DNA of 64,000 nucleotides from a virus, in the IMG/VR virus record IMGVR_UViG_3300023179_000041, positions 42,279-106,278 of that record; one strand, written 5' to 3'. Under the pieces are notes generated by a model. The model ran no database searches, was not told where the DNA came from, and saw only the letters and a program-made list of their open reading frames with translations. The number at the start of each line of letters is the position of its first letter. Within the stretch, counting starts at the first letter, position 1. Of this stretch, positions 13,687 through 52,169 are shown one piece after another. Both the position numbers and the translations under genes were made by a program.

Positions 13687-15854
13687 TTGCTTACGACGTA
13701 GAGCCGTTAGCAAGAGCGTTTAGAAAAATCGCAGCCCTTTGCGATGGCGCAACTGAACAAGATGGAGTTGGCTTTAGTAAGGCTGATTCGCGGTTTGGCG
13801 CTCTTGTTGCACTTCTCCCAAGCAACAAGTGGTCTCCGGCAGTCACATACGTTGCATGGACCATTCTTGCAAACTATGGCTCGCAATTAAAACGTAACGG
13901 AATTGATTACGACTCGATTATTCCACCACCACGACCTGATACATACGCTGGCGCAGACACGGTTTCTCTGATATCTCAATTGCGGCAGAAGGGCGTAAAT
14001 AGGGTTTCGACAAACGGAGAATTGTTTGCAATCGAATGCGAGTATGACGAGCAACTAATTGGAGAATTACAGAAAATAAAAGGTATTGCCTGGAATCCCG
14101 AGGCAAGTATGTGGTTGGCCCCGCTTTCGAGTAGCGAGCAAGTAGCATCTCTTATAAGCCAATACAAATTCAATACAACAAAGGAACTTGACGAAATGGC
14201 TATCGTTCCAACAATCCCAACACAATCGGTTGACCGCTCGATAACCGTATCAAAAGGTGGGCGATTAATTTTCCAATTTCCATACGACCAAGACATAGTT
14301 GCAGAAATCAAGCAATTAAATGGGCGACTTTGGGACGTTAAAAAAAAGGTGTGGACCGCACCACCATCACTTACCGCTGTGGAGATTGCAGACAAATACG
14401 GCTTTGCGATTTCTCAGTCTCTTCGCGACTCATTGCTGAAAGCAGCAAAGCGCGAGACGGAACTTCTTGAAGCCTCAACCTCCACTGATGCGGAAGTTGA
14501 AATCCCGACTCTCTCTGGCACGCTGATGCCGTATCAAAGGGCTGGCGTTGCGTATGCATCTTCTGTCGGCAGATGCCTTATCGCAGACCAGATGGGTCTT
14601 GGCAAGACGGTTGAGGCGATAGCAACGCTTGAGGCAAAAGATGCGTTTCCTGCGGTCGTCGTTTGCCCCGCATCCCTTAAGGAGAACTGGCGCCGCGAGT
14701 TTGCAAAATGGCTTCCCCACAGAACGGTAAATGTCGTATCTGGAAAGACTGATATTGTTGCCTGCGATGTGAACGTAGTGAACTATGACATTCTGTATAA
14801 GTTTGTCGAGCCAATCCAGCACTTGGGACCGAATGGGCTAATCCTTGATGAATCACATTATGTAAAAAATGCTACGTCTAAACGAACTAAGGCGGCAAAA
14901 GAAATAGCGTCATCGATTGGCAACTCTGGTGCGGTTCTGCTGTTGTCTGGAACCCCAGTTATGAACCGTCCATCCGAACTGGTTTCTCAGTTGGAAATAA
15001 TGGGGATGCTGAGCAGATTCGGCGGCAAATGGGCATTCTTGAAACGCTATGCGGCAGCGCACCATAACGGTTTCGGTTGGGATACTGGCGGCGCAAGCAA
15101 TCTCATTGAACTCAATACAAAACTCAGGCAGAACTGTTATATCCGCAGAACAAAAGATGAGGTGCTTCAGGAACTCCCGGACAAAGTTAGAAACGTGGTG
15201 CATCTTGACGCTTCTGGTCCGGGTTTTAGGGAGTATAGGAATGCAGAAAATGACCTAGTTTCTTTTCTTATGGCAAACGGATACAAAGCAAAAGATTCAT
15301 CAGAACATCTGGCAAGAACACAAGTTCTGAAGCGTTTGGCTGCATTGGCAAAAATGGATGCTGTCGAGGAGTGGATTGACTCATTTCTTGAATCGTGCGA
15401 CCGCAAACTTGTCGTGTTTGCACACAACGTAGACATTGTGGACCACTTGTCTGATAAGTACGGCGGCTTGCGAGTTTCTGGACGAGACAGCCTTGAAGAA
15501 CGTCAGCACGCAGTTGACGCATTTCAAAATAACCCAAAAGCGCGTGTGATTATATTGAACCTGCAGGCTGGTGGAGTTGGTATTACATTGACCGCCGGTT
15601 CTGATGTTGTTTTTGTGCAGATGGGCTGGACTCCGGGCGAACACGACCAAGCGGAAGACCGTTGCCACCGAATCGGCCAGAAAAACAACGTTCAAGCATG
15701 GTACTTGCTTGCAGCAGACACGATTGATGAAGATATCTACGACCTTGTTGACACAAAGAGAAAAGTTGTTGATGCCGTTACCGAAGGCGACGAAGTGGAA
15801 CAACAATCAGTTGTAAAAGATTTAATGAAGCGGCTTCTAGCAAAAGCAGAATAA
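13662..15854 (+). CDS. SNF2-family helicase/translocase with two HARP-like repeats
   Basis: LIADQMGLGKT, LILDESH, LLSGTP, QAEDRCHRIGQ; two YD..I..W...W repeats at N-terminus. Confidence 0.9.
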   Translation: MVGDSKPVIAYDVEPLARAFRKIAALCDGATEQDGVGFSKADSRFGALVALLPSNKWSPAVTYVAWTILANYGSQLKRNGIDYDSIIPPPRPDTYAGADTVSLISQLRQKGVNRVSTNGELFAIECEYDEQLIGELQKIKGIAWNPEASMWLAPLSSSEQVASLISQYKFNTTKELDEMAIVPTIPTQSVDRSITVSKGGRLIFQFPYDQDIVAEIKQLNGRLWDVKKKVWTAPPSLTAVEIADKYGFAISQSLRDSLLKAAKRETELLEASTSTDAEVEIPTLSGTLMPYQRAGVAYASSVGRCLIADQMGLGKTVEAIATLEAKDAFPAVVVCPASLKENWRREFAKWLPHRTVNVVSGKTDIVACDVNVVNYDILYKFVEPIQHLGPNGLILDESHYVKNATSKRTKAAKEIASSIGNSGAVLLLSGTPVMNRPSELVSQLEIMGMLSRFGGKWAFLKRYAAAHHNGFGWDTGGASNLIELNTKLRQNCYIRRTKDEVLQELPDKVRNVVHLDASGPGFREYRNAENDLVSFLMANGYKAKDSSEHLARTQVLKRLAALAKMDAVEEWIDSFLESCDRKLVVFAHNVDIVDHLSDKYGGLRVSGRDSLEERQHAVDAFQNNPKARVIILNLQAGGVGITLTAGSDVVFVQMGWTPGEHDQAEDRCHRIGQKNNVQAWYLLAADTIDEDIYDLVDTKRKVVDAVTEGDEVEQQSVVKDLMKRLLAKAE

Positions 15855-23665: not shown

Positions 23666-24538
23666 ATGGCCACAGCGCTTCCAACTGTTCTTGAGTGGTA
23701 TGACGTCAATGGCGTAGAACTAGCCACACACGGCTACATGCTCTCCAGCGTTGAACGAGGCATTCCGGCCAAAAAAGGCGACAACGTTGGGTCAGCAATC
23801 ATTCATGGCACTCAGTGGCGCGAGAAGCGCCTTGAGGCACGTACAGAAACATGGACGATTTGGATTACGGACAATGACCCGGTATCTGGCTCTGTTGCCG
23901 CTACGGAAGCGGGACGCCGTTCTCAGTTTAACGAAAACTACGACACAGTATTTAATCTACTCAACGAAATGCCAGAACTTCTTACTATCACTCATGTTCG
24001 CATTAATCCAGACAACCCCTCAAATTATTCATCGCGAGTTGCATATGGCGAGATTGTTAACGCAGTTACGGTATCTGACCATCGTGACTTGAATGTCACG
24101 GAGTTTTCAGTCGACGTGCAGTTCCCGGACCCACGCTGGTTTGCACCAACGTCCTCGTCTGCTTCTGCGGCTTTTGCTGGTTCAAATGTCGCTGTTCCAA
24201 TGCCCGCATCTGCTATCGGTACGGCTCCTGTTACATACATGACTATCACGTTCACATCGACATCAAATCTGACTAATCCGCGATTGACAAATGAAACCTA
24301 TGCGAACAGCCTCAGTTCTATTGGCTATACAGGGACGATTCCTACGGGACAATCAGTAATAATTGATACCGATGCTTTAACGCTTGAGAAAAGTAGCGTT
24401 AATGAAATCAGCAAACTGTATAGGGCTGGCTCCAGGCAGTCTTGGTTCGAATTGTTTCCGATAGCAAACGATTTGACCTTTTCCGCACAGTCTGGAACTG
24501 GTACAGTAACTATTTCTTATAGGAAGGCTTATTACTAA
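23666..24538 (+). CDS. distal tail (Dit-like) protein
   Basis: follows tape measure; F..DPRWF motif; ends YRKAYY. Confidence 0.75.
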   Translation: MATALPTVLEWYDVNGVELATHGYMLSSVERGIPAKKGDNVGSAIIHGTQWREKRLEARTETWTIWITDNDPVSGSVAATEAGRRSQFNENYDTVFNLLNEMPELLTITHVRINPDNPSNYSSRVAYGEIVNAVTVSDHRDLNVTEFSVDVQFPDPRWFAPTSSSASAAFAGSNVAVPMPASAIGTAPVTYMTITFTSTSNLTNPRLTNETYANSLSSIGYTGTIPTGQSVIIDTDALTLEKSSVNEISKLYRAGSRQSWFELFPIANDLTFSAQSGTGTVTISYRKAYY

Positions 24539-27500
24539 TGGCAAAGACAACCTGGGATGTTTGGGTTGTTCTGGCCAATAATCCAAACCAAACCATCGCC
24601 TACGTTCCGCGCTGGAAAACAATTCAGTTCTCTGACCAACTAAACGATGTTGGCTCGGCGACTCTTGAACATGATTTCTCTGACCCATTTTTTGCTGCCT
24701 TCCAAGCGGACCGTGGCGATTCGCTTCTTGACGGACCATACGCACTTCAGGTGCGTCGAGATGGAACTCCAGTATTTACGTTTTTTATTGAAGATGTTCA
24801 AGTCGACCGCGCAGGAGTAAGCCAGGCCCTGACCATGGGCGGAAGAGGAATTGCCTCTGCAATGGAGTGGGCAATTGTATTGCCAGAAGATTTTTCAAAT
24901 CAAATCCGTGTAACTGCCGGGACAACACAAAGGCCTCGATTCTTTGACCGCCTATTTCCTGGTTATGCATACAACGTTCGCGTAGCGACGACTGGCAATC
25001 TTTCTGCAACCTATTCGAATGGCCCACAAACTGACGTTCCTGGTGCTGGCGCTCGACTAACCGCAACATCGAATGGGTCAATTAATAATGCCGGTATTGA
25101 CGGTTTGACAGATTTGGTTGTTGGAGACACCGTCCTGGTAAAGAATCAAACGAATGCAGCACACAATGGTGTTTACTGGATTGCAACGATTGGTGGGGCT
25201 TCTGAGCCGTGGATTTTGCAGCGAACAGCACGAGCAGATGGCTCACCAATAGGTGACCTTGCTGTCGACAATACGGCTTTTGTAACTGATGGAACGACCA
25301 ACGGATACACGTCGTGGCGAATTTCAGACAATGGTTCTTTGTCCAATTCAAATCAGGTTGGAACAAACAATATTGTTTGGTCTTCTGTCAGTCTTGGCTC
25401 ATTTACTGGCATTTCAGCCTTTTACATTCTCTTTAAAGAGGCAGATACTGGCTACGAATACTCTACAAAGAAAGCAGATTTTGGAACGGTCAAAACGCTT
25501 TACGGACGTGGTGGAACTGGCTATGCGGTGGACTGGCCACTATCACTTGATGCAACGCTCAATGCCTCGATGGGCAAGACTGATTCAAAAGGACATGTCG
25601 TTCAAGACGGTGGCAATTTCAACATTGCGGTAGGCCGTACAATTCTTGACGTATTAAATGAAGTAGCCAGCAATACAGGTGTTGATTGGCACGTTGCGCC
25701 CACTGGCGCAATAAGTATTGCGGTTCGCCCGTTTTCAACGGCGACGGTTGTCTTTGATGACCCATTTGGGAACGACCTTACAAGTGGTTCTGCTGCGCTG
25801 TTGTTCAGCCTTCCAATGCTTGAGCAAGTAGAGACACGCACGTCTGTTGCAGAACTTCGAACTGTTGTATATGGTTCTGACGGATTCAATCTCGACAGGC
25901 AAATATCTGACCGTACTGGTATTTATGGTTTCCGCGAAACATTTATTGAAAACACAAGTGACGATGCTCCCGCGGTGGCAAACATAACTGCAGCGGCAGT
26001 CCGACAGGTTCGTGATGGAAAACTTCAAATCACGACATCATTTGCCGAAAGAGATGGGATGATTGCGTGGGAAGATTTTGGAATTGGCGACAAGGTTTTG
26101 GTTGAAATCGATACAGGAGTTTTTAGCGAACGGATTATTAGCGCCATCGGTGCGTCGGTGGATGAAAATGGTAATGAAACAGTCGAGGTTACGTTTGGCG
26201 ATGTGTTTCAGGACTTGGCCAGCAATCTTAAATACGCAGCGAATTACGGACGCTTATCTGCCGCTGAGATACCGACATTCACACTGCGAGGCACGTCGTC
26301 TCAGCCAACAAAAGCCACCGGAACATCAATCGGGGCAGAAGTTCAGGGTTTAAGCAACCGTGTTGTTGCCTCATGGGTCCCTGCAGACAATACAAGTGCC
26401 GCGCAATATGAGGCAATTGTTTATAGGGAAGAACAAAACTCTGTTGGGATTGCAATAACTTATCCAATAGTAAATATTTACCGTGATGGGAATATCGCAT
26501 ACTGTCAAGTTGATTCTGCTCACGGTTTTGATGTTGGTGACCGCATAAACATATACGACACGACAAATGACTATTTTGACCGCACAAGCGTGTTTCTAAC
26601 TAGCGCGAGCGGTGCTTACTTTACATTTAACGATGCCGGCCCAGACATTGATAGCGGGACATATACAAGCGGAGATGTTGTTCGAGTTGTCGAGCGCCAC
26701 TCCACATTTGTGCCAGCAAATCAAACATCTGCGACTTTTGAAAACCTTGCCGCGCCAGGACGTGAATATCAATTTACCGTTTTACCTTATACGTCAAATG
26801 GCCAAGCCGGTCTTCCAGCCGACCCAATCTCGTTTACTGCTTCCGCTAGCGCGCAAATACTTTTAGGCGGTGCAATTCGTTCAAATAACTATGTTCAGAA
26901 TACAAGCGGATGGACAATTGAGCACGATGGTTTTGCTGAATTAAACAATTTGATTGTTCGCAACGGTACATGGGTTCAAGGAACTCTGACTGCGCCAACG
27001 CTGCAAACCGCAACATCAAACCCAAAACTGGTAATTACATCAGCCGGATTGTATGCATATAACAGTGCTGGAGATATAGTTACGTCGATTGCTTCGACAA
27101 CTGGAGCATTTTCTACTGTTTCTGGTGCGTTTTCTGGCACTATTAACGTTGGCGGTAATGATGCAACATCTTTTCACGTTGACACAAACGGGAATATGTG
27201 GATTGGTGCAACAACGTTTGCTTCTGCGCCGTTTAGGGTTTCCAGTGCAGGAGAACTGACGGCCACAAGCGGAACTTTTAGCGGCGCATTTGCTGGCACG
27301 TTGGATATTGGAGGTAGCGACACAACCTCATTTCACGTTGACACTGCTGGGAACATGTGGCTTGGTGCTGCTACTTATGCCGCGGCTCCGTTCAAAGTAA
27401 GTAATGCTGGCGCACTGTCTGCAACTGGTGCAACCGTTACAGGCACCATAAATGCTTCGAGTGGAACGATTGGAAATCTTTCTATCAGCGATGGTGCAAT

Positions 27501-28347
27501 CACATATGCCGACTCAAGTAGCCGATTTCTGCGATTGGGTCCGCAGTCATGGCCGGATAATAACAGCGCTGCATCTCTTGTTATTTCTACAACAGTTGGA
27601 GGGGGTTCTTACACCAGAATTTTATCAACAGGTATCAATACACCATCAATAACTTCTGATGTCTTCTATGGGAGTTTTGCGCGAATTGACGATTATCGAA
27701 ACAGTGCTGGAGGAAATGCAAACTTTTTTGGAACTTTATACGGAAATATAACTGGGAATGCTGCCACCGCAGATAGTGCAAATAATGCAAATAATGCAAA
27801 TTACGCAAGCAATGCTGGTGCTGTTAGCGGATACGCAGTAAGTACTGGATTTGGAAGTACCAACAGCCTCCCAGTGCGCGAAGGTGATGCATCGATTGGT
27901 GCTCAATACTTTAGATTTGATGGCGGAGCATCAATCAATCCAGGACAAGGCCAAGAAATTCGCGTTCGTAATGATGGTTATATTTTGCGTTATAATTCCA
28001 GACGTGACCTTAAGGAGCAAATTCAAAACATAGAACCAGATTTTGCTATAAATTTGATTCAATCACTTCAGCCGGTATCTTTTAGGTGGAAAACAAATGA
28101 TTATGACGACCCTGTTTTTGCAGAACATACAAGCACGTATAAAGAATTTGGTTTTATCGCAGAAGATGTTGCTGCGGTAACTCCGCATTTGGCTAGTTTC
28201 CGAACTAATGAAGGCGGAACTGGCATTGCCCCATCATCGTGGCAGTCAAACGGGCTTATATCAATATCCGTTTCTGCCATTAAGGGGCTTATTGTCGAAA
28301 TTAATGCGTTGAAAGACCGTATTTCGGCGCTAGAATCTCAGCCATGA
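24538..28347 (+). CDS. large tail tip/fibre protein with FN3-like region and C-terminal S74-type chaperone
   Basis: LVKNQTNAAHNGVY fibre motif; S.R..KEQI...LQPVSF.WK...FGFIAEDV. Confidence 0.85.
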   Translation: MAKTTWDVWVVLANNPNQTIAYVPRWKTIQFSDQLNDVGSATLEHDFSDPFFAAFQADRGDSLLDGPYALQVRRDGTPVFTFFIEDVQVDRAGVSQALTMGGRGIASAMEWAIVLPEDFSNQIRVTAGTTQRPRFFDRLFPGYAYNVRVATTGNLSATYSNGPQTDVPGAGARLTATSNGSINNAGIDGLTDLVVGDTVLVKNQTNAAHNGVYWIATIGGASEPWILQRTARADGSPIGDLAVDNTAFVTDGTTNGYTSWRISDNGSLSNSNQVGTNNIVWSSVSLGSFTGISAFYILFKEADTGYEYSTKKADFGTVKTLYGRGGTGYAVDWPLSLDATLNASMGKTDSKGHVVQDGGNFNIAVGRTILDVLNEVASNTGVDWHVAPTGAISIAVRPFSTATVVFDDPFGNDLTSGSAALLFSLPMLEQVETRTSVAELRTVVYGSDGFNLDRQISDRTGIYGFRETFIENTSDDAPAVANITAAAVRQVRDGKLQITTSFAERDGMIAWEDFGIGDKVLVEIDTGVFSERIISAIGASVDENGNETVEVTFGDVFQDLASNLKYAANYGRLSAAEIPTFTLRGTSSQPTKATGTSIGAEVQGLSNRVVASWVPADNTSAAQYEAIVYREEQNSVGIAITYPIVNIYRDGNIAYCQVDSAHGFDVGDRINIYDTTNDYFDRTSVFLTSASGAYFTFNDAGPDIDSGTYTSGDVVRVVERHSTFVPANQTSATFENLAAPGREYQFTVLPYTSNGQAGLPADPISFTASASAQILLGGAIRSNNYVQNTSGWTIEHDGFAELNNLIVRNGTWVQGTLTAPTLQTATSNPKLVITSAGLYAYNSAGDIVTSIASTTGAFSTVSGAFSGTINVGGNDATSFHVDTNGNMWIGATTFASAPFRVSSAGELTATSGTFSGAFAGTLDIGGSDTTSFHVDTAGNMWLGAATYAAAPFKVSNAGALSATGATVTGTINASSGTIGNLSISDGAITYADSSSRFLRLGPQSWPDNNSAASLVISTTVGGGSYTRILSTGINTPSITSDVFYGSFARIDDYRNSAGGNANFFGTLYGNITGNAATADSANNANNANYASNAGAVSGYAVSTGFGSTNSLPVREGDASIGAQYFRFDGGASINPGQGQEIRVRNDGYILRYNSRRDLKEQIQNIEPDFAINLIQSLQPVSFRWKTNDYDDPVFAEHTSTYKEFGFIAEDVAAVTPHLASFRTNEGGTGIAPSSWQSNGLISISVSAIKGLIVEINALKDRISALESQP

Positions 28348-30552: not shown

Positions 30553-31218
30553 ATGTCAATTAAAATCATGGACTGGGTATTCGAGAACTCCAAGGCTCAA
30601 GGCATCGAGCGATTGATTCTGCTCGTCATTGCTGACCATTGCAACAGCGAAGGCGAGCATGCATTCCCAAGAATCAGCGTGATTGCTAAGCGCGCCAATG
30701 TTTCCGAGAGAACCGTAAAACGCAAACTACAAGATTTGGTTGAACTTGGAGAACTAAAAGTTGTTAAGCGGCACGGAACGTCGAACCTATATAAAATTGT
30801 CACCAGAAAAAATAAAACTTCTTCAAACGAAATAGTTCCCATCGAGCCAAAGGTGCAAAAAAGCAAAAAGCGAGAACGCAATCCGATTTGGGACACGCTC
30901 CTTGAAGTATGTGGAGTCAACCCGAACAAAGTCAATTCAAACGAGGCATCTCGATATGGTCGAATGGTCAGGATTCTAAATGAATCTGATGCGACCCCAG
31001 AAGATATTCGCGTTCGTGCAGAAATATATAAACAAAAATTTTCCTACGCCACAATGACCCCAACGGCATTAGTGAATCGCTGGTCTGAATGTGACCCAGC
31101 AAGTCAACCGATGAACGGCTTGAACGGCGTTGTGCCGAAAGGCTGGAACGCTATTAAGGCAGCACGCGAACAGCGGCTATCTCAAGCCGTAACAGTGAAA
31201 GGTGAATTGAATGTCTGA
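30553..31218 (+). CDS. replication initiator-like wHTH protein
   Basis: RLILLVIADHCN....FP.IS.IAKRANVSERTVKRKL..L...G...SNLY; C-terminal TPTALVNRW. Confidence 0.75.
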   Translation: MSIKIMDWVFENSKAQGIERLILLVIADHCNSEGEHAFPRISVIAKRANVSERTVKRKLQDLVELGELKVVKRHGTSNLYKIVTRKNKTSSNEIVPIEPKVQKSKKRERNPIWDTLLEVCGVNPNKVNSNEASRYGRMVRILNESDATPEDIRVRAEIYKQKFSYATMTPTALVNRWSECDPASQPMNGLNGVVPKGWNAIKAAREQRLSQAVTVKGELNV

Positions 31219-31871: not shown

Positions 31872-33191
31872 ATGTCGGACAACATTCAAGTAAATACAGA
31901 GATAGTTGAAATCACCAGTCTTAAGCCATACCCAAAGAACCCGCGTCGCGGTGATGTTGAGGCAATCGCACAATCACTCAAAGTGAATGGACAGTACAAA
32001 CCAATCGTCGTGAATAAGCGCGACAACACCATTCTTGCCGGTAACCACACATGGAGAGCGGCACGAAGCCTGGGCTGGACACACATTGCAGTTTCGTTTG
32101 TCGATGTAGACGATTACGGTGCGCAAAAAATTGTTCTGGCTGACAATCGCACGTCCGATATGTCTTCCTATGACGATTCAAAACTCCTTGACCTTCTGCA
32201 ATCGTTGTCGACGCTTGATGGAACAGGATTCCAGCAGGTTGACATCGACCAACTTGAAGCACTAATTAGCGGAGACGGAGAATTTGAAGCGCCTAACCGA
32301 GATAGAACCGGCGCGGTTGGCAAGGAAATTCGTGTATGTGTTGGAAGTTACAGAATTCTTGTTGATGACGATGTTTACTCTGATTGGGCAAATGATATTG
32401 CTACAAAAGTTGGAGATGATGACAAGGTTCTAGTCGAACTCAAGAAGCGTTTACGTCTTTCAGATGTAACTCATTTACCACCAGAAAAAACAAAGCCAAA
32501 GCGACAAAAACGAAATATCGACAGGCAGCAAATGCACTCTGTGATGCTTTCTACGGAAAATGTCGACATCAATAGCGTCTTCCCATACCCGCTCAATGCA
32601 CGACAGGGCGATATCGGCCTGATTGCTGAATCTTTAAGCAAGAACGGTCAGTTCCGGCCAATTGTTGTCAACAAACGGGACAATTCAATCTTGGTTGGTA
32701 ATCACACGTGGAAGGCAGCCAAGATGTTGGGGTGGAAACAAATTGCGGCAACCTTTGTTGATTGCGATGAGGAGGAGGCAGCAAAGATTGTTCTTGTGGA
32801 CAACAAGACTGCAGACCTTGGGTCTTATGACCATGTTGAACTAGCAGAAATTCTTCAAACACTTCCAGTGTTTGACGGAACCGGATATACAGGAGATGAC
32901 TTAGACGACCTGATGCATGAGGTCGCCGGTTGGGGTATCAAAGAAAAACCAGTCAAAGAAAAGAACGATAAGCCCAGAAACGTTACGGCGATTATCGGAA
33001 AGTGGGAGTTCAAGATGGCGCCTAACTTTTATGAAGATTGGGAAGAGGCAATGTTTGTTGAGTTCGGATACTCATATGAAGAGGTTTGCGCTGGAATTGT
33101 TGGTCTTTTGGACATTCAAAACGATGCATGGGTTTCTACCCGTCAGCGACGTTCAAAGAAGGTCAGCCCGCGTAGGGCAAACGGAGAATAA
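31872..33191 (+). CDS. protein with two ParB/Srx N-terminal domains
   Basis: two copies of PYP.N.R.GD...IA.SL..NGQ..PIVVNKRDN.IL.GNHTW.AA..LGW...DN. Confidence 0.9.
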   Translation: MSDNIQVNTEIVEITSLKPYPKNPRRGDVEAIAQSLKVNGQYKPIVVNKRDNTILAGNHTWRAARSLGWTHIAVSFVDVDDYGAQKIVLADNRTSDMSSYDDSKLLDLLQSLSTLDGTGFQQVDIDQLEALISGDGEFEAPNRDRTGAVGKEIRVCVGSYRILVDDDVYSDWANDIATKVGDDDKVLVELKKRLRLSDVTHLPPEKTKPKRQKRNIDRQQMHSVMLSTENVDINSVFPYPLNARQGDIGLIAESLSKNGQFRPIVVNKRDNSILVGNHTWKAAKMLGWKQIAATFVDCDEEEAAKIVLVDNKTADLGSYDHVELAEILQTLPVFDGTGYTGDDLDDLMHEVAGWGIKEKPVKEKNDKPRNVTAIIGKWEFKMAPNFYEDWEEAMFVEFGYSYEEVCAGIVGLLDIQNDAWVSTRQRRSKKVSPRRANGE

Positions 33192-34738
33192 TGAAGCCCG
33201 TTCTTGCATCAGTAACAGACTTAAGGCCATCTGCATACAATCCGCGCAAAGCGGATGCAGAGAGGCTTGAGTTGGTTGAATTATCGCTGCGCAAGTTCGG
33301 TTGGCTATTACCTATCTACGCAGACAAGGATGGCGAGATTCTCAGTGGTCACCAGCGCCACATGGTCGCCACAAATATGGGAGCCACGATGGTCCCCGTC
33401 GTGCGTGTTCCTTCGTTCAAGATTGAGCGACGCATGGGCATCAACGTCCTTTATAACCGTGCTACGAACGACATGTACAAAACTCGTTCAACCACAGAAC
33501 TCAAAGATGACCTAATGGCAAAACTTGGAGACCTTGAGAAAATCAAGATGCTCCCAGACATCCCTGTTGATTCTCTAGAATGGTATCCAGTACTTAAGAC
33601 CAAGCCGGTTTCCACTCTTAGGCTCATACAACTGAACGGAAAATGGCCGGAACAGCACGCAGTTGCTATGGCAGCGCAGTTAAAAACTAACGGGCTTCCC
33701 CAGATGCCGGTCATCTGCACCACTGACTACAAGGTTCTCAATGGCCTTGCCAGGCTGACATACGCAGTGTCAGTAAATGAAGACTTTGTTCAGACCGTAC
33801 AGGTAGCGCCAGACATTGCCGAAGAGGTAACAGCAATGCTGAACCTTCTGACGATGGATTACAACATTCAAGAACGATATGAAGACCTGCTTCGATACAA
33901 CTCGTTTCGTCGAAAAAACCAACGGGTTCAGATTCTCACACCAACATTCTTGGAAGATTTTCTCCGCCACTTCATTAACTCTGGCAATCGTAACGGCGCC
34001 TTTGAACTCGATAACCCGCGCCATGTAGAACTATGGAAAGAGTATTACGGCACTCACGTCATTGACTTTGGTGCTGGTCTATGCGACAAGACTCAGATTC
34101 TCCGAAACATGGGAGTGGATGCAGTTGAATTTGAGCCTTTCTTCCTTGCCAAAGACAACGAAACAATCGATACGGACGCCGCTCGCGAACTTACGTCAAA
34201 ATTCCTTGCCCGCGTTGCGGACGGTACGGAGTGGGACAGTATCTTTATCGCTTCGGTATTCAACAGCATCCCATTCCTGCAAGACCGCAAACACGTGATT
34301 GCCATTGTCGCTTCCTTGTCGTCCCCACATACAAAACTCCACACAGCCGCTATATGCACGGAATCAGACCGTTGGTTCAATCACACTCGCGGAGATTTAA
34401 AGAAGGGACACGACACGTCAAGCAACGGATTTGCCCTTGATTACGAGCCACGCATCATCATCTCCGATATCGCTCTAAAGCCAAAGGTCCAGAAGTACCA
34501 TACCGAAACCGAGTTCAGCGAACTCATTAGGCACGGCTACCGGCATGTAGATACGTTCTTGACCGCCAAAAACGGGCTTGTTCAAGCCGTTGGTTCCAAT
34601 GCCCGACAAATTGGGGTCGACGAACTACGTGTTGCAATTGAGTTTGAGTTCAATGTCCCACATCCAGAAGGCCGTCGTCTTGGAATGGTGGAGGAAGCAA
34701 AAGCGGCGTTTTCCAAGAGGCTTGGGATTCAATTATGA
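33191..34738 (+). CDS. ParB-N domain fused to class I SAM-dependent methyltransferase-like domain
   Basis: YNPRK...ILSGHQR; VIDFGAG; DSIFIASVFNSIPF. Confidence 0.75.
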   Translation: MKPVLASVTDLRPSAYNPRKADAERLELVELSLRKFGWLLPIYADKDGEILSGHQRHMVATNMGATMVPVVRVPSFKIERRMGINVLYNRATNDMYKTRSTTELKDDLMAKLGDLEKIKMLPDIPVDSLEWYPVLKTKPVSTLRLIQLNGKWPEQHAVAMAAQLKTNGLPQMPVICTTDYKVLNGLARLTYAVSVNEDFVQTVQVAPDIAEEVTAMLNLLTMDYNIQERYEDLLRYNSFRRKNQRVQILTPTFLEDFLRHFINSGNRNGAFELDNPRHVELWKEYYGTHVIDFGAGLCDKTQILRNMGVDAVEFEPFFLAKDNETIDTDAARELTSKFLARVADGTEWDSIFIASVFNSIPFLQDRKHVIAIVASLSSPHTKLHTAAICTESDRWFNHTRGDLKKGHDTSSNGFALDYEPRIIISDIALKPKVQKYHTETEFSELIRHGYRHVDTFLTAKNGLVQAVGSNARQIGVDELRVAIEFEFNVPHPEGRRLGMVEEAKAAFSKRLGIQL

Positions 34739-35454
34739 GGGACAAAGACAACTACAAACCAAGTGGCAAATGGACATTTGATGAGGGTGTCACGAAGGTA
34801 TTTGAAGACATGATTTCCAGGTCAATTCCTGGATATCAAACAATGCGCGATTCTGTCGTCCGAGTGGCTACGCCAATTTTGTGCGCCGCAAACGTATCAA
34901 ACTTTTTGGATGTTGGCTGCAGCCGTGGTGAAACTATCTATCAAATCCTTAACGCTCTTCCTACTGACATCCCCGCGACTGCTGTTGGTGTCGACTCCAG
35001 CCAGCCCATGATTGATGCTGCTGCTGAACTTTTTGGGAACTTTGACAATGTTCGATTTGTTTGTGCGGATGTCAGCGATATCGAGATAAGGCCCTTCGAA
35101 TATTCGCTTATTACGTCGGTACTCACCGCGCAATTCATTCCTCTTGATGTCCGCCAAAATTTCTATCAACAGGTGCATAATGGTTTGTCCTTAAATGGGG
35201 CGTTTATTATCGTCGAAAAGATACTTGGCGAGACTCCACTTTGTCAGGATTTGCTGGTTGACATTTATCACACTTTTAAAGCCGACAACGGTTATACGCA
35301 CGAACAGATAGAAGAGAAGCGGAAGTCACTTCAGGGAGTTTTGGTTCCGCTTCGTGGTTCGGAAAATGAAAAAATGCTCAAAGATGCCGGCTTTATAAAT
35401 GTTCAGCGTTTCTGGCAATGCCTGAACTTTGCTGGTTGGGTGGCATTCAAATGA
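34735..35454 (+). CDS. cmoA: CmoA-like carboxy-SAM synthase / methyltransferase
   Basis: WTFDEGVTKVFEDMISRSIPGY, DVGCSRG, FKADNGYTHEQIEEKRKSL, FWQCLNF. Confidence 0.8.
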   Translation: MRDKDNYKPSGKWTFDEGVTKVFEDMISRSIPGYQTMRDSVVRVATPILCAANVSNFLDVGCSRGETIYQILNALPTDIPATAVGVDSSQPMIDAAAELFGNFDNVRFVCADVSDIEIRPFEYSLITSVLTAQFIPLDVRQNFYQQVHNGLSLNGAFIIVEKILGETPLCQDLLVDIYHTFKADNGYTHEQIEEKRKSLQGVLVPLRGSENEKMLKDAGFINVQRFWQCLNFAGWVAFK

Positions 35455-35831
35455 AAAAGCAGGACAAGAAAGTCCATGTTCTTGAAGTTTGGGGCGAAAT
35501 GTGGACCTCCAATAAAGAACGAACACTCCATCATTTCACGCGCGCCAAGAAGGTCAAGGAGTGGCGTGAAGCAGCATGTGTGTCTGCCATTGCCCGCAAG
35601 ATTCCCAAGATGAAAGCAATCGAGGTCCGCTTCATCCCCCATCGGGTGAACAAACGGGGCCTAGCAGATACTGGTGGGCACTTCCCGGTAGCAAAGGCCA
35701 TGATTGACGGTTTGGTTGACGCCGGCATCCTTACTGGCGATGGACCGGATACTGTGCGTAGACTTATATTCGAAGCACCGATTATTTCTGGCGAAAGCAA
35801 AGCAGTAATCGAAATCACCGAGTTGGAGTAG
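35451..35831 (+). CDS. RusA-like Holliday junction resolvase
   Basis: TSN...K.WR; D.G....KAMIDGLVDAGILTGD. Confidence 0.65.
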   Translation: MKKQDKKVHVLEVWGEMWTSNKERTLHHFTRAKKVKEWREAACVSAIARKIPKMKAIEVRFIPHRVNKRGLADTGGHFPVAKAMIDGLVDAGILTGDGPDTVRRLIFEAPIISGESKAVIEITELE

Positions 35832-36593: not shown

Positions 36594-36820
36594 CGCAAAC
36601 ACTCCAGCGTCACGCACTCGACCCCAGCGAGTGCCAGATGTTGAGAAGTCAAGAAATCCATCATCTCTGCACGTCAAGCGGAATCTTCACCGAAGAAGAA
36701 GATGTCGTATTCAAAATTTCTGTTTTGATGTTGGAAGAACGACATGGCTGGTCGTATGGTGGTGGCGAACAACTCCACAAAAAGAAAGAAGAAGAACAAT
36801 GGTCACACAAAACCGATTGA
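36569..36820 (+). CDS. hypothetical protein
   Basis: fills gap in operon. Confidence 0.4.
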   Translation: MYASAVVLTQTLQRHALDPSECQMLRSQEIHHLCTSSGIFTEEEDVVFKISVLMLEERHGWSYGGGEQLHKKKEEEQWSHKTD

Positions 36821-37353
36821 GAGAAAATGGCGCCTTTAGCCCGGACCCAAAAGTTCGTGTCCATGTCCCACAGGACGTGTTTCTTCAGAACAACAAATAT
36901 TTGTTGGATGAAAAGATTGATACGCCGCGTGGCGGCGCTTGTCAAGGCCAAGACACTTCGATTTTCTTCCCACTACATGCAGACGGTCGCTACACAAAAA
37001 AGCAGTTGACAGATAGACAAACCGCTATATCGCTTTGCCGGTCCTGCGATATCAGACAAAAGTGTTTGATGTATTCACTGGAGTACGAGCCACAAGGAAT
37101 TTGGGGTGGATTCCCGGAACAAGCCAGAGCCCTACTCGGGAAGTTCTGGGGTATTGAAAACAAGAGAACTTGGAAGGTCAGAGCCTCCTTCTTGAGGTAT
37201 AGAAAGATTGTCGACTATATTGTCAATTCGGAAGACATTGCGTTTCTCAAGAAAGTAGCCCATGACCACAATCTTGCACAACCACCTTTTGATGAACGGT
37301 CAGGCCTATCAGCCGCCGCGCGACGTCGAATCAGTCAAGGAGTGGCTAACTAA
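36799..37353 (+). CDS. whiB: WhiB-family Fe-S transcription factor
   Basis: GAC...FFP...CRSCDIRQKC...GIWGG. Confidence 0.85.
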   Translation: MVTQNRLRENGAFSPDPKVRVHVPQDVFLQNNKYLLDEKIDTPRGGACQGQDTSIFFPLHADGRYTKKQLTDRQTAISLCRSCDIRQKCLMYSLEYEPQGIWGGFPEQARALLGKFWGIENKRTWKVRASFLRYRKIVDYIVNSEDIAFLKKVAHDHNLAQPPFDERSGLSAAARRRISQGVAN

Positions 37354-37887: not shown

Positions 37888-38460
37888 CTAGCGGTACGGC
37901 TCTCCATGTGCCCACGTAGTCAAGGAATACCTAACCCCCGACTCTACGGGTAGGACCTGATGAAGGGTCCACGAAGGCCACACGGTGGCGTACCCCTGAA
38001 CAGCGGAGATTGATTCCTCTTCCGGCCCCGCATATAAAACAACCCTCCCGCCTTTGTAGTTGTAGTGGGAGGACAGTTGGACGGTCATGGACAACTTCCG
38101 CTCCCGCGCCGCCCCGTATGACCAATCGGTATGACGCCCGTATCCATCCCCGACCTGATACTCCAGAACTCGGATGGACGGGATATCGGTATAGGACAGT
38201 TGCCACGGATTACCCCTGGCGAACCCCTCGTAGACGCGCTGAGAGAGGCTAGAAGCGTCGTTAAAGGTTAAACCATGTGGGTCTATCAAATATTCTTTAC
38301 AACGCCTTAAATCGCTTCCTGACGCTTGTGGGGAGTGGTGGACGAGGCCAGGTTGGGAATATCCCGATGAGATGGCGTAGTCAACGACCATTTGGGCTTC
38401 CTGCGGCGTGAACATCTGAAATTCATAATGAGTCCCCTTATTCAGCCCCTTGTTTTTCAT
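37888..38460 (-). CDS. 2OG-Fe(II) oxygenase (PKHD-type)
   Basis: HTD, RKLSMTVQLS...Y.GG, WPSWTLHQVLPV.SG.RYSL. Confidence 0.9.
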   Translation of the reverse strand: MKNKGLNKGTHYEFQMFTPQEAQMVVDYAISSGYSQPGLVHHSPQASGSDLRRCKEYLIDPHGLTFNDASSLSQRVYEGFARGNPWQLSYTDIPSIRVLEYQVGDGYGRHTDWSYGAARERKLSMTVQLSSHYNYKGGRVVLYAGPEEESISAVQGYATVWPSWTLHQVLPVESGVRYSLTTWAHGEPYR

Positions 38461-38526
38461 ACATTCTCCCTATACTCGCGGTACTATCACAACGATACAC
38501 AACCGATAACACTAAGGTCTTGGACT

Positions 38527-39081
38527 ATGCCCCTTCAAAAAACCCACTACCCAGATTGGCTGAAGGATTACGTAAAAAAACTGCAGAGCGAGATGAAACT
38601 TGCTCATTGGCAGATTGAGTTTGAAAAGCACTACTGCGGAGAAGCAGCCTTCGCTGAAATCTCCGTCCTGCCAGCACAACACTCCGCAACGCTATCTCTG
38701 TGTCGAGGTTGGCGCAAGTGGTCACCAAGTTTGATGCGAAGCACCATCACTCACGAACTCATGCACTGCCATCTAAACGCAATAAACGAAATTGCGGAAG
38801 AACACTTGGAAGAGTTGTCCCCCAAGACGTATGAAGCACGCAAGAAGGGAATTGATTATGTCAATGAGAGGGTAACGGATGCCCTGGCAGAGATGATTTC
38901 CCCACACTTGACTTTGCCAAAAGTGCCAGTGGTCCGCAAGTCGCACACACTATCGCATACACTATCATACTCTCGCACACGAAGTAGTGCAAAATCGGGT
39001 AAGTCAAACGGGAAGAAAGTACAGAAGTCCGGTAAAAAGAATGTAAGGAAGAGGCCCGCTAAGCCGAAGAAACGAAATTAA
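38527..39081 (+). CDS. HExxH metallopeptidase-like protein with basic tail
   Basis: ITHELMHCH...E. Confidence 0.7.
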   Translation: MPLQKTHYPDWLKDYVKKLQSEMKLAHWQIEFEKHYCGEAAFAEISVLPAQHSATLSLCRGWRKWSPSLMRSTITHELMHCHLNAINEIAEEHLEELSPKTYEARKKGIDYVNERVTDALAEMISPHLTLPKVPVVRKSHTLSHTLSYSRTRSSAKSGKSNGKKVQKSGKKNVRKRPAKPKKRN

Positions 39082-39192: not shown

Positions 39193-39519
39193 CTAATCTC
39201 GCGCTAAATCCCGTCTTCGCAGCGTCTCATTTGAAACTTGTGCGTCCTTTATGAATTTAGTTTTCTCGTAAGCCATCAATGCAGCAATTCCACGTTCAGT
39301 AATCACAACATTCTTCCCCACTCGCATACACCAGCCGTTTTCCAAGTATCGACGAATGATTAACAGGGCCTGTGAGCGTGTTGGGACGTTCTTGGACTTC
39401 GCATTCGCTCCTTCGTGTGGAGAGACGAAGTCAATGTAGACGTCAGCGTTGAATTCCTTGCCGATGCGCGTGTAAAAGCGCATGATGTTGAGCATGTTCC
39501 ATTTGTGATTTGTTGCCAT
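39193..39519 (-). CDS. winged-helix-like protein
   Basis: RYLENGW...VITERG. Confidence 0.45.
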   Translation of the reverse strand: MATNHKWNMLNIMRFYTRIGKEFNADVYIDFVSPHEGANAKSKNVPTRSQALLIIRRYLENGWCMRVGKNVVITERGIAALMAYEKTKFIKDAQVSNETLRRRDLARD

Positions 39520-40045
39520 AGTTGTTCTTCTTCAATCTAGCGACCATCACGTCCTTTTCCAACTGCGTGAGTGGTCTTTTGTATGGTGTGTGTCTCTTGG
39601 AGTACTTGCAATTATGTTTCTTCATCGCGGCCTTTAGTTGTTTTAATTTCTCCCGACCAAAAAACAGAAGTACCAAATGCTGATATACGCGGCAAAACTC
39701 TCTTCCGTGTTCCTGTACATCTGCCGGAGTGAATAGATGCGCGAGTTCGTGGAGGATGGTGTGTTTATTTCGGAACTTGCGCGGGAATGAAACCCACATC
39801 TTGTCCGGAAGTATGCGGGCCCATGCCTTACGAGAGCCATCACCCTTGGATATCTTGAGCGGGATACGTCCAGATACGATATCGCGGGCCACTGGGTATC
39901 TTTTTTGGACCCGCCAGTTCGATAAAACTTTCCAAATGTATGCCTCGGCATCCCCCATGGTCTTGAATTCCATTGTCGGCCAGCCAAAGCACTCCCACTC
40001 CGCTGCGTAGAGGCGGCTTCTCTGGTTGTCTCGCGGGCGCGGCAT
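39443..40045 (-). CDS. SprT-like / Rv0185-family HExxH metallohydrolase
   Basis: RDNQRSRLYAAE; ILHELAH...HGREF. Confidence 0.75.
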   Translation of the reverse strand: MPRPRDNQRSRLYAAEWECFGWPTMEFKTMGDAEAYIWKVLSNWRVQKRYPVARDIVSGRIPLKISKGDGSRKAWARILPDKMWVSFPRKFRNKHTILHELAHLFTPADVQEHGREFCRVYQHLVLLFFGREKLKQLKAAMKKHNCKYSKRHTPYKRPLTQLEKDVMVARLKKNNYGNKSQMEHAQHHALLHAHRQGIQR

Positions 40046-49716: not shown

Positions 49717-49882
49717 ATAATTCTTGAAATAGGTTGGCATTTGGGTATTCTCCCCCTATATTGGTATTACCAACGTGAACGAAATAAATATTCGCGATGG
49801 TGGTTGCGAAAGCAACGGCAATGTGATACACTTAGTAATAGCAATACCAACCCAAATAACCAAACACAGAAAGGCAATAGCA

Positions 49883-50926
49883 ATGTCCAAAGAAACTATG
49901 GAGTGGCTCAACTCCAACATTCTCGTCGGGTTCACCGCCGAGCGTGGGAACGCGTGGCACTACCGCGCCGACCTACAAGGTTCAGAGCCAAACCACTACG
50001 AAGGCGCGATTCCGACCGACGATATTCTTCGTCGGCTCTTCGCGTGGTCGGCAGTATCGGCTCCCGTTTTTGTTCGTGTCCCCGCGACACTTGAAGACGC
50101 GACCTCAACCGATGACGAAGGCAATCCAATCAAGTTCATTCGCGTAGAGCGTCAAGCAATCTTGCGCTCAGATACCAACGAACTGATGGAAATCTTCGGC
50201 AACGACTATCGCTCGCACCAATACGGCGAGTGGCTCGTTCAGAACCTTGCGAACATCGTTGATGGAAATATCAACTTTGGCTCGGCAGGGCTCTTGAAGA
50301 ACGGCGCAGTTGCGTTCGTCTCGTTGGAAATGCCAGAGTCAGTAGAAGTGTTGGAAGGATTCTCAGTCCGACCGCACCTACTCGCGACTACTTCGCACAA
50401 CGGAATGTTGGCAACGACCTACAAGAGCGTTTCTACATTCGTCGTGTGCGATAACACTCACGCGATGGCGATGAGCGAAAACACGAGTCAGTTCAAGACC
50501 CGACACAGCAAGTATTCGGGAATGAAGATTCAGTCTGCTCGTGACGCTCTTGGTATCGTTCACAAGATGACGGAAGATATCGTCGCGGAAGTGACGAAAC
50601 TGTCCGAAGTCAAAGTGACCGACGCAGAATGGCAAAAAGTGCTTGAAGCACTCGCGCCTATTCCGTCGCTTGCGAAAGACGAAAGCAACAAGGCAGCAGT
50701 GACGCGCGCAGAGAATAAGCGCGCCGAACTTGTCGGTCTTTACAACTACGATGTTCGCGTGGCACCGTGGAAGGGTTCAGCACTTGGAGTTCTTCAAGCG
50801 TTCAACACTTACAACCACCACATCGTCGGCAACGACAAGAACCGCGCCGAGCGCAATCAAATGAACGCGCTAATGGGCAAGACCGAGCAGAGTGACCGAA
50901 AGGTTCTCCAACTTCTCGGAGTCTGA
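49883..50926 (+). CDS. DUF932 family (phage/plasmid-like) protein
   Basis: AWH, SAGLL..G, LLATTSHNG, VVCDNT, RH. Confidence 0.85.
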   Translation: MSKETMEWLNSNILVGFTAERGNAWHYRADLQGSEPNHYEGAIPTDDILRRLFAWSAVSAPVFVRVPATLEDATSTDDEGNPIKFIRVERQAILRSDTNELMEIFGNDYRSHQYGEWLVQNLANIVDGNINFGSAGLLKNGAVAFVSLEMPESVEVLEGFSVRPHLLATTSHNGMLATTYKSVSTFVVCDNTHAMAMSENTSQFKTRHSKYSGMKIQSARDALGIVHKMTEDIVAEVTKLSEVKVTDAEWQKVLEALAPIPSLAKDESNKAAVTRAENKRAELVGLYNYDVRVAPWKGSALGVLQAFNTYNHHIVGNDKNRAERNQMNALMGKTEQSDRKVLQLLGV

Positions 50927-50958
50927 CCGCGTACAGGTGGGGTGCGAAAGCACCCCAC

Positions 50959-50972
50959 CGAACACGCGTTCG
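50959..50972. promoter_or_regulatory. LexA (SOS) box, actinobacterial type
   Basis: CGAAC-ACGC-GTTCG. Confidence 0.65.
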
Positions 50973-51290
50973 GGCCGCGAGCGCGCGGCGAGGCCGGGAA
51001 CAGGGACCGACGAACCGGACATGCCAGGGTCCAAGGGAACGGCGCAGCATAAGAATAAAACCATTGGTAATGGAACACCATTTCTTGGGTCGGGAGCAGG
51101 AGCAGGTTTACAGCGCACCGGCGCATAGCAAAACTGTTAGGCAAGCCTTACAAAAGAAACTTTGCACAATCTCAGTTTCGGGTTGCGCACCACACCCCAA
51201 GTGTGGTACAGTATAGGTATGGGGTTAGCACCCCAGAAAATAATTCAGAATAAGGTTGCGAAAGCGACTAGAATGTGATACAGTATAAGT

Positions 51291-51517
51291 AGTGGGAAAC
51301 CACTACGGAATCACTAACAACATACGGATAGCATTACCAGTCACGCGTTGTATCACCAGCGATGTGCGAGAGAAGTGCCGCGGCACCCACTCAGTTCCTC
51401 TCCTGCGATGAGCCGCCTCTGCTAGTCCCTGCTATCGGCGGCAACCAGACTTGCTATCTGGTGGGTCGCAACGAAATGGGCAACGACGGTTGCTGTTGGT
51501 GGTTTCGTAGTGGTTTC
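51291..51517 (+). ncRNA. candidate ~225-nt structured ncRNA
   Basis: own promoter; 24-bp 5'/3' stem whose three deviations are all G-U pairs; internal hairpins. Confidence 0.7.
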
Positions 51518-51609
51518 TGACTGCGATAGGTTGCGAAAGTGCCTAGCGTGTGATACAATCTAAGTAGTGGGCAATCCCGCCCACTACAAACACAAGGAAA
51601 GGCAACACA

Positions 51610-52062
51610 ATGAGTACCATCAGCAATACGACGGAACTGAGCGTGGGAGAAATCGTCTCACTGCTCGGCGCAAACTGTCTCAACACCAACCCGACTATCG
51701 GCACTGCCCCCACAAAGGCTCGTGTCGCACCCGTAGCGTTCCACGACGGACACCCAATCTGGGTCAAAGACTTGGAACAGCGTGGCGGAGATGTGTACGA
51801 CCTGCTGGATACAATCACCCCCGACGAGTCTGCGAACTATTACGGGGTCATTACGGCTGGTTGGGCTTCGCCCGTTGGAGACAACGACCACCTGCCACCG
51901 TCTCAGCACCCTGAGCGTCGGCGTGTGGAGTTGCTGGTCGTCGTCAATCGTGACGGCTCAATAGCAAGCGCACTCTCAATGTCGGGCAACGACGAACTGA
52001 TTATTGACGAAGGCAAAGCGCACGGCGCACTTGCCGACGCAGTTCTCGGTATCTTCGCCTGA
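51610..52062 (+). CDS. hypothetical protein
   Basis: GWA.P...PSQHPERRRV; promoter, SD and 3' hairpin. Confidence 0.75.
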   Translation: MSTISNTTELSVGEIVSLLGANCLNTNPTIGTAPTKARVAPVAFHDGHPIWVKDLEQRGGDVYDLLDTITPDESANYYGVITAGWASPVGDNDHLPPSQHPERRRVELLVVVNRDGSIASALSMSGNDELIIDEGKAHGALADAVLGIFA

Positions 52063-52071
52063 GTCAGTCGG

Positions 52072-52095: not shown

Positions 52096-52169
52096 CACAA
52101 CTCGGCCGGCAGGGGCAGAATCTTCCAAACAAAGTTGCAAAGCAACAGAAAGTGTGATACACTAGAACT

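Follow-up and report, generated by a model that had tools for sequence, protein, structure and literature searches.

A ParB-fused class I transferase linked to CmoA as a candidate DNA carboxymethylation system of phages

In bacteria, carboxy-S-adenosylmethionine (carboxy-SAM) serves the CmoA-CmoB pathway, in which a CmoA-type synthase and a class I (Rossmann-fold) transferase lead to cmo5U34 in tRNA (PMC3663124, PMC4482062). Arg199 of CmoA forms a salt bridge with the carboxylate of the cofactor and is not conserved in ordinary S-adenosylmethionine (SAM) enzymes (PMC3663124), and CmoB accommodates the same carboxylate in a pocket of Lys91, Tyr200 and Arg315 (PMC3663124, PMC4482062). A phage-borne pathway was published in December 2025. 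CmoA of Synechococcus phage S-B43 makes carboxy-SAM, CmoX, a homologue of C5-cytosine methyltransferases with an SPPC motif and Arg350, yields 5-carboxymethylcytosine (5cxmC), and CmoY amidates this base to the glycine amide (Yang et al., Nat Commun 2025, PMC12783734). ParBc proteins were found in many CmoX contigs, and the authors identified no CmoA-linked candidate for an adenine-N6 or cytosine-N4 carboxymethyltransferase (PMC12783734). Here we analyze a stretch of 64,000 nucleotides (hereafter the window; positions 42,279 to 106,278 of IMG/VR virus record IMGVR_UViG_3300023179_000041), in which a CmoA-like gene follows a ParB-fused transferase of another kind. The window is part of a record of 106,278 bp with an estimated completeness of 79%.

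An earlier note on this DNA had described three translationally coupled genes on the + strand (a ParB-ParB protein, a ParB-methyltransferase and a CmoA-like protein) and proposed that they form a DNA carboxymethylation system. The components, together with a fourth gene and a second ParB-like domain inside g2 that were absent from that note, are as follows.

31872-33191, + strand: g1, tandem ParB protein, 439 aa
33191-34738, + strand: g2, ParB-ParB'-class I SAM-methyltransferase fusion (phrog_5475), 515 aa
33191-33526, + strand: g2 domain 1, N-terminal ParB/Srx domain (residues 1-112) with invariant YNPR, GHQR and NRxTND
33635-33868, + strand: g2 domain 2, degenerate ParB_N-like domain (residues ~149-226), in which NGxxRL replaces GHQR
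33872-34738, + strand: g2 domain 3, class I (Rossmann-fold) SAM-dependent transferase, proposed user of carboxy-SAM
34735-35454, + strand: g3, CmoA-like putative carboxy-SAM synthase, 239 aa
41687-42148, + strand: capless protein of the haloacid dehalogenase (HAD) fold, phrog_32036, 153 aa, with motif I D13-L-N15 and motif IV D-S-N

The open reading frames (ORFs) of g1 to g3 were exactly as described before. The g1/g2 junction is TAATG, a 1-nt overlap with GGAGAA 8 nt upstream, and the g2/g3 junction is ATGA, a 4-nt overlap, so translational coupling is plausible.

Like the CmoA-CmoX-CmoY system, the window has a phage CmoA homologue adjoining a SAM-fold transferase, with ParB-domain proteins nearby (the cluster of phage PaBG runs ParB, C5-methyltransferase, CmoA, AsnB). 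Unlike CmoX, however, g2 has no PF00145 domain, no SPPC or PC motif and no context for a catalytic Cys, and it is fused to two ParB-type domains. Loci of the fusion type furthermore have a dedicated HAD-fold partner, which is never seen in C5-type loci, and none was found with the AsnB-type amide ligase that 12 C5-type loci carry. With bacterial CmoA-CmoB the window has in common a class I Rossmann-fold transferase and a CmoA-type synthase with the Arg199 equivalent, but g2 does not match the CmoB family PF08003, the record has no CmoB, and the context is phage and ParB rather than tRNA modification. The ParB_N-fused DNA methyltransferases of phages and plasmids (phrog_498; CDD cd16402 ParB_N_like_MT, according to the record of phage SM1) resemble g2 in joining an N-terminal ParB/Srx domain to a SAM transferase; g2 differs from them in its two tandem ParB-type domains, its near-obligate linkage to CmoA and its Methyltransf_23-like class I domain without a [DNS]PP[YFW] motif, the comparison with these fusions covering the ParB part, the only region over which g1 and g2 match phrog_498.

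From the evidence below we favor, with moderate confidence, the reading that a previously undescribed family of transferases carboxymethylates phage DNA with carboxy-SAM as cofactor. The concept of DNA carboxymethylation in phages, which the earlier note had put forward without knowing of PMC12783734, was already in print, for CmoX and cytosine C5 only; what is new is the transferase family, a partner that is not of the C5 type. In a literature search, ParB, CmoA, methyltransferase and phage were combined in no paper but PMC12783734, and no paper tied phage PaMx31, a carrier of the cassette, to DNA modification.

The identity of g3 as a CmoA homologue is clear. It matched TIGR00740 over residues 11-239 (E 1.6e-47, 162.2 bits) and aligned over its full length with the PDB CmoA chains 1im8 (E 8e-35) and 4gek (E 1e-27). 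The C-terminal KR, which the earlier note had listed among the CmoA signatures, is Lys195-Arg196 and corresponds in the PDB alignment to Lys198-Arg199 of Escherichia coli CmoA. In E. coli numbering, g3 retains Y39, D62, G64, S66, D89, D117, F137, E164, K198 and R199, and two contact residues are altered (Asn132 to Val and Asn90 to Ser). Asn132 is likewise missing from the CmoA proteins of C5-type clusters in phage PaBG, whose CmoA is 41% identical to g3, and in a Staphylococcus phage SPbeta-like genome.

Among 64 distinct CmoA-like proteins that partner the fusion, Lys198 is invariant and Asn132 is never retained, and Arg occupies the position of Arg199 in 32 (including the clade of the window), whereas 21 have Glu there, nine have Ala and two have Asn or Thr. 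The proteins without Arg include those of loci L061-L078 and L024-L029, and those with Ala have an Arg four residues later. The same displacement is seen in the SPbeta-like CmoA (L166), which lies beside a C5-methyltransferase and has Ser for Arg199 and Arg four residues later. This indicates that either Arg199 is not strictly needed, or some of these proteins differ functionally.

For g2, the ParB_N match of the window protein alone is weak (17 bits), and the family is matched by 36 of the 39 homologues in its alignment (A1). The profile of this alignment retrieved Noc and Spo0J chains from the PDB (E 5e-6), and domain 1 has a predicted fold close to that of CTP-bound ParB (Z 11.4, root-mean-square deviation 2.0, 93 aa). 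Comparison of domain 1 with domain 2 by hhalign (alignment residues 1-112 against 120-232) gave a probability of 95.4% and an E-value of 1.8e-8. The ParB CTPase clamp motifs GERRxR and ENLQRE are not found in g2, which has invariant GHQRH and NRATND instead.

The transferase part was assigned from its family and its model. Methyltransf_23 was matched by 20 of the 39 homologues. In the AlphaFold2 model of g2 (pLDDT 88), residues ~226-476 were closest to METTL6 (Foldseek, VIA; Z 13.4), with further matches at Z 11-13.4 to the Mycobacterium tuberculosis heterocyclic toxin methyltransferase, GNMT and CcbJ; the tRNA methyltransferase Trm9 and the small-molecule methyltransferase ToxA are also near folds. 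Motif I, VIDFGAG (residues 290-296), and the acidic E315 after strand 2 are invariant in the family. On its motif I, post-strand-2 acid and modeled fold, domain 3 is a class I SAM-dependent transferase, in agreement with the ParB-methyltransferase of the earlier note. Alignment of 23 diverged domains revealed the family-specific invariants LRYNSFRR, NSxPFxxDR, YE and PKxQK, and six basic residues outside the canonical motifs are invariant as well (R235, R241, R366, K432, K435 and R510).

The absence of PC and DPPY motifs, also pointed out in the earlier note, holds for the whole protein: neither a PC dipeptide nor a [DNS]PP[YFW] motif occurs in g2, and the loop after strand 4 reads FNSIPF. A Pfam scan of g2 gave ParB_N alone, with no match to PF00145 (C5), PF01555 (N6_N4_Mtase) or PF08003, and a PDB search with the g2 profile returned ParB chains and a marginal UbiG match only. 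In PADLOC, g2 and g1 match MTase_II models via their ParB part only, and g3 gets a generic methyltransferase match. A search for shorter, unfused versions of the transferase domain found just fragments of close relatives, its look-alikes in the protein atlas are generic Methyltransf_23 clusters, and a nucleotide search of the phage collection gave short ParB matches only. The g2 family comprises about 600 clusters at 50% identity (595 from a search of representatives), and among the 150 clusters listed most are of about 500 aa with the architecture of g2.

To see whether fusion and CmoA belong together, the neighborhood survey suggested in the earlier note was carried out. The best 80 loci were taken in each scan, which makes it a sample of IMG/VR rather than a complete census. 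In 80 IMG/VR loci encoding the fusion (g2 relatives 39-94% identical), an iterated CmoA profile detected a CmoA-like ORF in 72; the eight others are all truncated less than 720 nt downstream of the fusion, so that linkage holds in 72 of 72 testable viral loci. Among 80 fusion loci from bacterial genomes a CmoA-like gene was present in 68, the misses being nine cut loci and three with full flanks (68 of 71 testable). These genomic loci are prophages or contigs of metagenome-assembled genomes from Actinomycetota, Pseudomonadota (Alphaproteobacteria), Verrucomicrobiota (including Akkermansia), Cyanobacteriota, Chloroflexota, Bacteroidota, Bacillota (Clostridia) and Thermodesulfobacteriota (Bilophila wadsworthia). 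The order ParB, fusion, CmoA-like was also found in the cultured phages Gordonia Evaa, Aeromonas HJ05 and Pseudomonas SM1/PaMx31.

The reverse survey was anchored on CmoA of the Arg199 type in 79 viral loci, with a 7-kb neighborhood searched for C5-methyltransferases; it used a narrow alignment (A4), the mixed one (A3) being too divergent, and is biased toward Arg199-type CmoA. A C5-methyltransferase was found in 43 loci, the fusion in 30, both in none and neither in six, five of which are cut at the contig end. The SPPC signature of CmoX was present in 36 of the 43 C5 enzymes. In nine of the fusion loci (L024, L026, L028, L029, L041, L086, L087, L089 and L152) a C5-methyltransferase does lie at a distance of about 3 kb, but it scores weakly and has GYPC or SCPC in place of SPPC; judging from motifs and scores, these are probably ordinary Dcm-type enzymes, though they could conceivably be a second user of carboxy-SAM. 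The AsnB-type ligase (seed PaBG gp306) was detected in 0 of 191 fusion-bearing loci, compared with 12 loci of the C5 type.

A CmoA tree (FastTree, 76 dereplicated rows, with long-branch warnings for Evaa, HJ05 and SM1) showed the C5 and fusion partner types interleaved, with 15 label changes by parsimony. Branches with SH-like (Shimodaira-Hasegawa) support of at least 95 force at least five partner changes, and some sister proteins have partners of opposite type. One kind of CmoA thus serves both partners, which have been exchanged repeatedly, and carboxy-SAM synthesis was demonstrated for the system of the CmoX type (PMC12783734).

Erwinia phage Yoloswag (L164, record 12158-13816) belongs to a set of CmoA-encoding Erwinia and Dickeya phages of ~260 kb, and its neighborhood is different: within 5 kb, both the C5-methyltransferase and the ParB fusion are absent. 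Beside this CmoA lies gp17, a PP-loop (QueC/Asn_synthase-like) protein, with a 2-oxoglutarate (2OG)-Fe(II) oxygenase nearby. In Yoloswag the transferase may be encoded at another place in the genome, which would make this a third type of arrangement.

Profile scans of the whole 106-kb record gave no match to PF00145, PF01555, PF02086, PF08003 or PF00733; the record is without a C5, N6/N4 or Dam methylase and without CmoB, and g2 is the sole methyltransferase-fold partner detected in it. Because g2 and CmoA are near-obligately linked, the fusion and CmoX exclude each other, the CmoA tree is interleaved and no other methyltransferase was found, g2 appears to be the only sensible consumer of carboxy-SAM in this phage. 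The suggestion of the earlier note that the ParB-fused transferase uses carboxy-SAM has thus gained strong comparative evidence, and its two further parts, DNA as acceptor and transfer of the carboxymethyl group, stay conditional.

It could be argued that g2 is an ordinary SAM methyltransferase, for DNA or another substrate, and that the CmoA-like protein drains SAM, disturbs SAM-dependent defences of the host via carboxy-SAM, or is a methyltransferase in its own right. Motif I and the fold of g2 are indeed those of an ordinary methyltransferase, half of the partner CmoA-like proteins have no Arg at the position of Arg199, depletion of SAM by phage CmoA has been raised as a possibility (PMC12783734), and mutants of CmoB can revert to methyl transfer (PMC4482062). 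However, the occurrence of CmoA with exactly one of two transferase types, never alone and never with both, is not predicted in this way, nor are the repeated partner swaps in the tree or the tight translational coupling to the transferase, and the CmoA of the window retains both Arg199 and Glu164. We regard this explanation as distinctly unlikely.

The case for DNA as the acceptor in carboxymethylation starts from the ParB domains. In g1, two ParB_N domains were found (PF02195, 63 bits against a cut-off of 26.3, in two stretches), as the earlier note had read them, and its halves (residues 1-215 and 216-439) share 44% identity over 178 aa (E 3e-55); g1 is, by this comparison, a tandem duplication of a ParB_N-containing unit. 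It matches phrog_8071 and phrog_723 at about E 1e-95, has GNHTWRAA where ParB CTPase clamps have the CTP-binding motif GERRxR, and gave a weak SerK match in an NCBIfam scan. In 66 of the 80 viral loci the fusion is preceded by a ParB gene, whose product usually has one ParB domain and about 266 aa. The DNA context is suggested by the ParB domains fused and adjacent to the transferase, by the PaBG cluster of the CmoX type, which also starts with ParB, and by the likeness of the HAD protein to a polynucleotide-end enzyme.

This HAD gene was found by clustering the neighbors of g2, which yielded a protein of about 157 aa (phrog_32036) without a Pfam match; no kinase, ligase, thymidylate-synthase-like gene or polymerase partner was conserved in the cassette by the same clustering. 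Of the 80 viral loci, 48 have a HAD homologue between fusion and CmoA, as do most of the 80 genomic loci (74 of 83 with three phage-isolate loci included). In the window no gene occupies this slot, and the homologue is found 6.2 kb downstream instead (31-70% identical to its relatives in alignment A2). In a scan anchored on the HAD gene, fusion and CmoA were both present in 55 of 68 loci, the others being cut or from the clade of the window, where the gene is in trans. It was found in 0 of the 43 C5-type loci. The HAD gene is therefore tied to the fusion and not to CmoA as such.

The model of the HAD protein (AlphaFold2, pLDDT 92) has a capless HAD fold, with the 3'-phosphatase domain of T4 Pnkp as the best match (5uj0; Z 15.1, root-mean-square deviation 2.5, 129 aa), followed by Pnkp1 (Z 14.3), compared with at most 12.1 for other HAD proteins; a PDB sequence search with the HAD-like profile gave no meaningful match. 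Like T4 Pnkp, it has the nucleophile Asp, the Thr/Ser-x-Arg of motif II, the Lys of motif III and the first acid of motif IV in register (hhalign against T4 PseT: Thr57/Arg59 with Ser211/Arg213, Lys98 with Lys258, Asp121-Ser122 with Asp277-Asp278). Unlike T4 Pnkp, it has Asn for the general acid Asp167, Ser for Asp278, a Mg ligand in the T4 enzyme (PMC3592404), and no kinase domain. Across alignment A2, motif I reads D-L-N without exception and motif IV reads [E/D]-S-N, so that the Asp-x-Asp of motif I and the acidic Mg ligand of motif IV expected of a phosphatase are both missing from a protein that has the fold. In T4 Pnkp, the mutation D167N abolishes the 3'-phosphomonoesterase and leaves a weak 2',3'-cyclic phosphodiesterase, and the mutant sequesters 3'-phosphate ends (PMC3592404). 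Since the invariant D-x-N is like this mutation, the HAD family is unlikely to consist of ordinary phosphatases, and the protein, encoded in trans in the lineage of the window, may be seen as a natural 'D167N/D278S' Pnkp-type protein. Its set of Asp, Thr, Lys and Ser-Asn also recalls the catalytic residues of L-2-haloacid dehalogenase (PMC4899344). As a speculation by analogy, the X-CH2-COO- substrates of such dehalogenases could be compared with the carboxymethyl-sulfonium of carboxy-SAM.

Variants around the HAD gene were also observed. In L018 and L020 the HAD-like protein has an N-terminal DUF3721 extension. In one marine clade of nine loci (L051, L058, L060, L097 and five more), a TauD/TfdA-family Fe/2OG dioxygenase (PF02668, E 1e-21; L060:8071-9003) is encoded between the HAD-like gene and CmoA; the window is without it.

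Another oxygenase is encoded in the window at 37888-38460 (- strand), 2.4 kb downstream of CmoA: a 190-aa 2OG-Fe(II) oxygenase (PF13640, E 1.6e-14). Relatives of this oxygenase are encoded no more than 7 kb from the fusion or the HAD gene in 47 loci, which fall into two related clades (the freshwater clade of the window and a clade about 42% identical in g2), and in none of the C5-type loci surveyed. It may be a lineage-specific neighbor or an accessory hydroxylase.

The resemblance of the HAD protein to T4 Pnkp and Pnkp1 would also fit another acceptor. Carboxy-SAM would be used, but on RNA or a polynucleotide end in a Pnkp/Hen1-like 'heal and mark' reaction: a 3'-phosphate or cyclic-phosphate end would be bound by the HAD protein, and the nucleotide or phosphate at this terminus would be alkylated by the transferase. 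The targets could be host tRNA cut by anticodon nucleases, or phage genome ends from packaging. The sequestering of 3'-phosphate ends by T4 D167N, which D-x-N mimics, would suit such a role, but a kinase or ligase is not conserved in the cassette. The tRNA methyltransferases METTL6 and Trm9 are among the top folds of g2, and CmoA originally served in tRNA modification; those tRNA-enzyme folds, however, stand at most 1 Z unit from small-molecule enzymes, and ParB is typical of DNA-acting systems, including the CmoX-type DNA system with its ParB neighbor. As for packaging, the cassette abuts the terminase gene in many other phages, whereas in the window it lies in the replication/recombination block, distant from the packaging genes. 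Taken together, we consider marking of RNA or of polynucleotide ends unlikely.

Nor do we give much credence to a free nucleotide or small metabolite as acceptor, in a pre-replicative or metabolite pathway with the ParB/Srx domains as nucleotide-binding modules and the HAD protein acting on a nucleotide phosphate, which seems very improbable. The cassette has no conserved nucleotide kinase, thymidylate-synthase-like gene or polymerase partner, and its HAD protein, although nucleotidases are common in that superfamily, is without the general acid for monoesterase chemistry. Three to four ParB-type domains per system are hard to rationalize on this basis, even though the ParB/Srx fold includes nucleotide-using enzymes and g1 has its weak match to SerK. 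Many of the near folds of g2 (CcbJ, ToxA and GNMT) are small-molecule methyltransferases, which agrees with such a pathway.

Returning to DNA carboxymethylation, from the observed gene identities, linkage statistics and folds we infer the use of the cofactor, carboxymethyl rather than methyl transfer, DNA rather than RNA or another acceptor, and the roles of the ParB and HAD components, which would fit together in the following way. By its homology and conserved cofactor-binding residues, g3 would convert SAM of the host and prephenate to carboxy-SAM. The class I domain of g2 would then transfer the carboxymethyl group to phage DNA, the cofactor being suggested by linkage and the acceptor by the ParB context. 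The two ParB-type domains of g2, together with g1, would bring or load the enzyme on DNA. More speculatively, the HAD protein would act in the same system by binding or processing a nucleic-acid phosphate or the carboxymethyl group, rather than as an ordinary phosphatase. The likely benefit would be the shielding of phage DNA from host nucleases. Since g2 has no Cys-containing PC motif and no amino-methyltransferase motif, its product is probably not 5cxmC as made by CmoX, and a different carboxymethyl adduct is more likely.

A wider proposal, which we put forward tentatively and hold to be plausible but still doubtful, is that a second natural carboxymethyl mark on DNA, distinct from 5cxmC, is made by phages of at least eight bacterial phyla. 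Its writer would be a ParB-loaded class I transferase, with a re-purposed Pnkp-like HAD protein without phosphomonoesterase chemistry as the obligatory partner. The target could be a ring or exocyclic nitrogen, an oxygen, or a terminal or backbone phosphate, and the HAD protein may serve to bind a phosphate or an end of the DNA, or else act on the carboxymethyl group much as a haloacetate dehalogenase would.

About 40% of the sampled phage CmoA loci have no CmoX and carry the ParB-fused transferase instead. If DNA carboxymethylation by g2 is true, there would be a second class of DNA-carboxymethylating enzymes, probably with a new product, a function for the long-unexplained ParB-methyltransferase fusions, and a new enzyme for putting a reactive carboxyl handle on DNA. 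The cultured carriers (Gordonia phage Evaa, the Pseudomonas phage SM1/PaMx31 group and Aeromonas phage HJ05) make this reading directly testable.

Several points weigh against it. g3 is a clear CmoA homologue yet stays below the equivalog level, its score not reaching the TIGR00740 equivalog cut-off of 193.3, and part of the CmoA-like partner family may bind the cofactor otherwise or make another product. The nearest folds of g2 are tRNA and small-molecule methyltransferases, not DNA methyltransferases, and they stand little above the class I background. Kinases and nucleotide-binding proteins can contain ParB/Srx domains as well, so that a DNA substrate does not follow from the fusion. Three genomic loci (L090, L100 and L145) have the fusion, the HAD-like gene and a downstream flank of 6 kb with no called CmoA-like ORF, which could reflect loss, frameshift or relocation. 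Finally, at a completeness of ~79%, a further partner could sit in the absent part of the record.

As for the surroundings of the cassette, g1-g3 lie inside the replication/recombination block of the window, downstream of the structural genes. Other features are as follows.

~1-28 kb: structural genes
24538-28347: tail protein with a Peptidase_S74 domain
30553-31218: replication initiator, in the replication/recombination block
35418-35831: RusA-like resolvase, in the replication/recombination block
36631-37353: WhiB-like regulator, in the replication/recombination block

The WhiB-like regulator points to an actinobacterial host. A search of sequencing runs found the DNA of the window, as contigs, in freshwater and lake metagenomes only, with no RNA dataset among the runs listed. 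A promoter and terminator scan gave no signal exceeding the shuffled expectation.

The composition of the window changes toward its end. GC content rises to 0.51-0.56 in the last 14 kb (50000-64000), compared with 0.41-0.49 elsewhere, and AT skew is strongly positive (0.20-0.33) from ~54 kb and lower elsewhere. Beyond 35 kb there is a single ORF of at least 250 aa. A DUF932-family protein (PF06067, E 1e-34) is encoded at 49775-50926 (+ strand) amid small ORFs. Two ORFs, at 39443-40045 (- strand) and 38392-39081 (+ strand), had weak matches to SprT-like metalloproteases below the cut-off (E 0.006 and 0.04, respectively), and a HELAH motif is present in the first of them.

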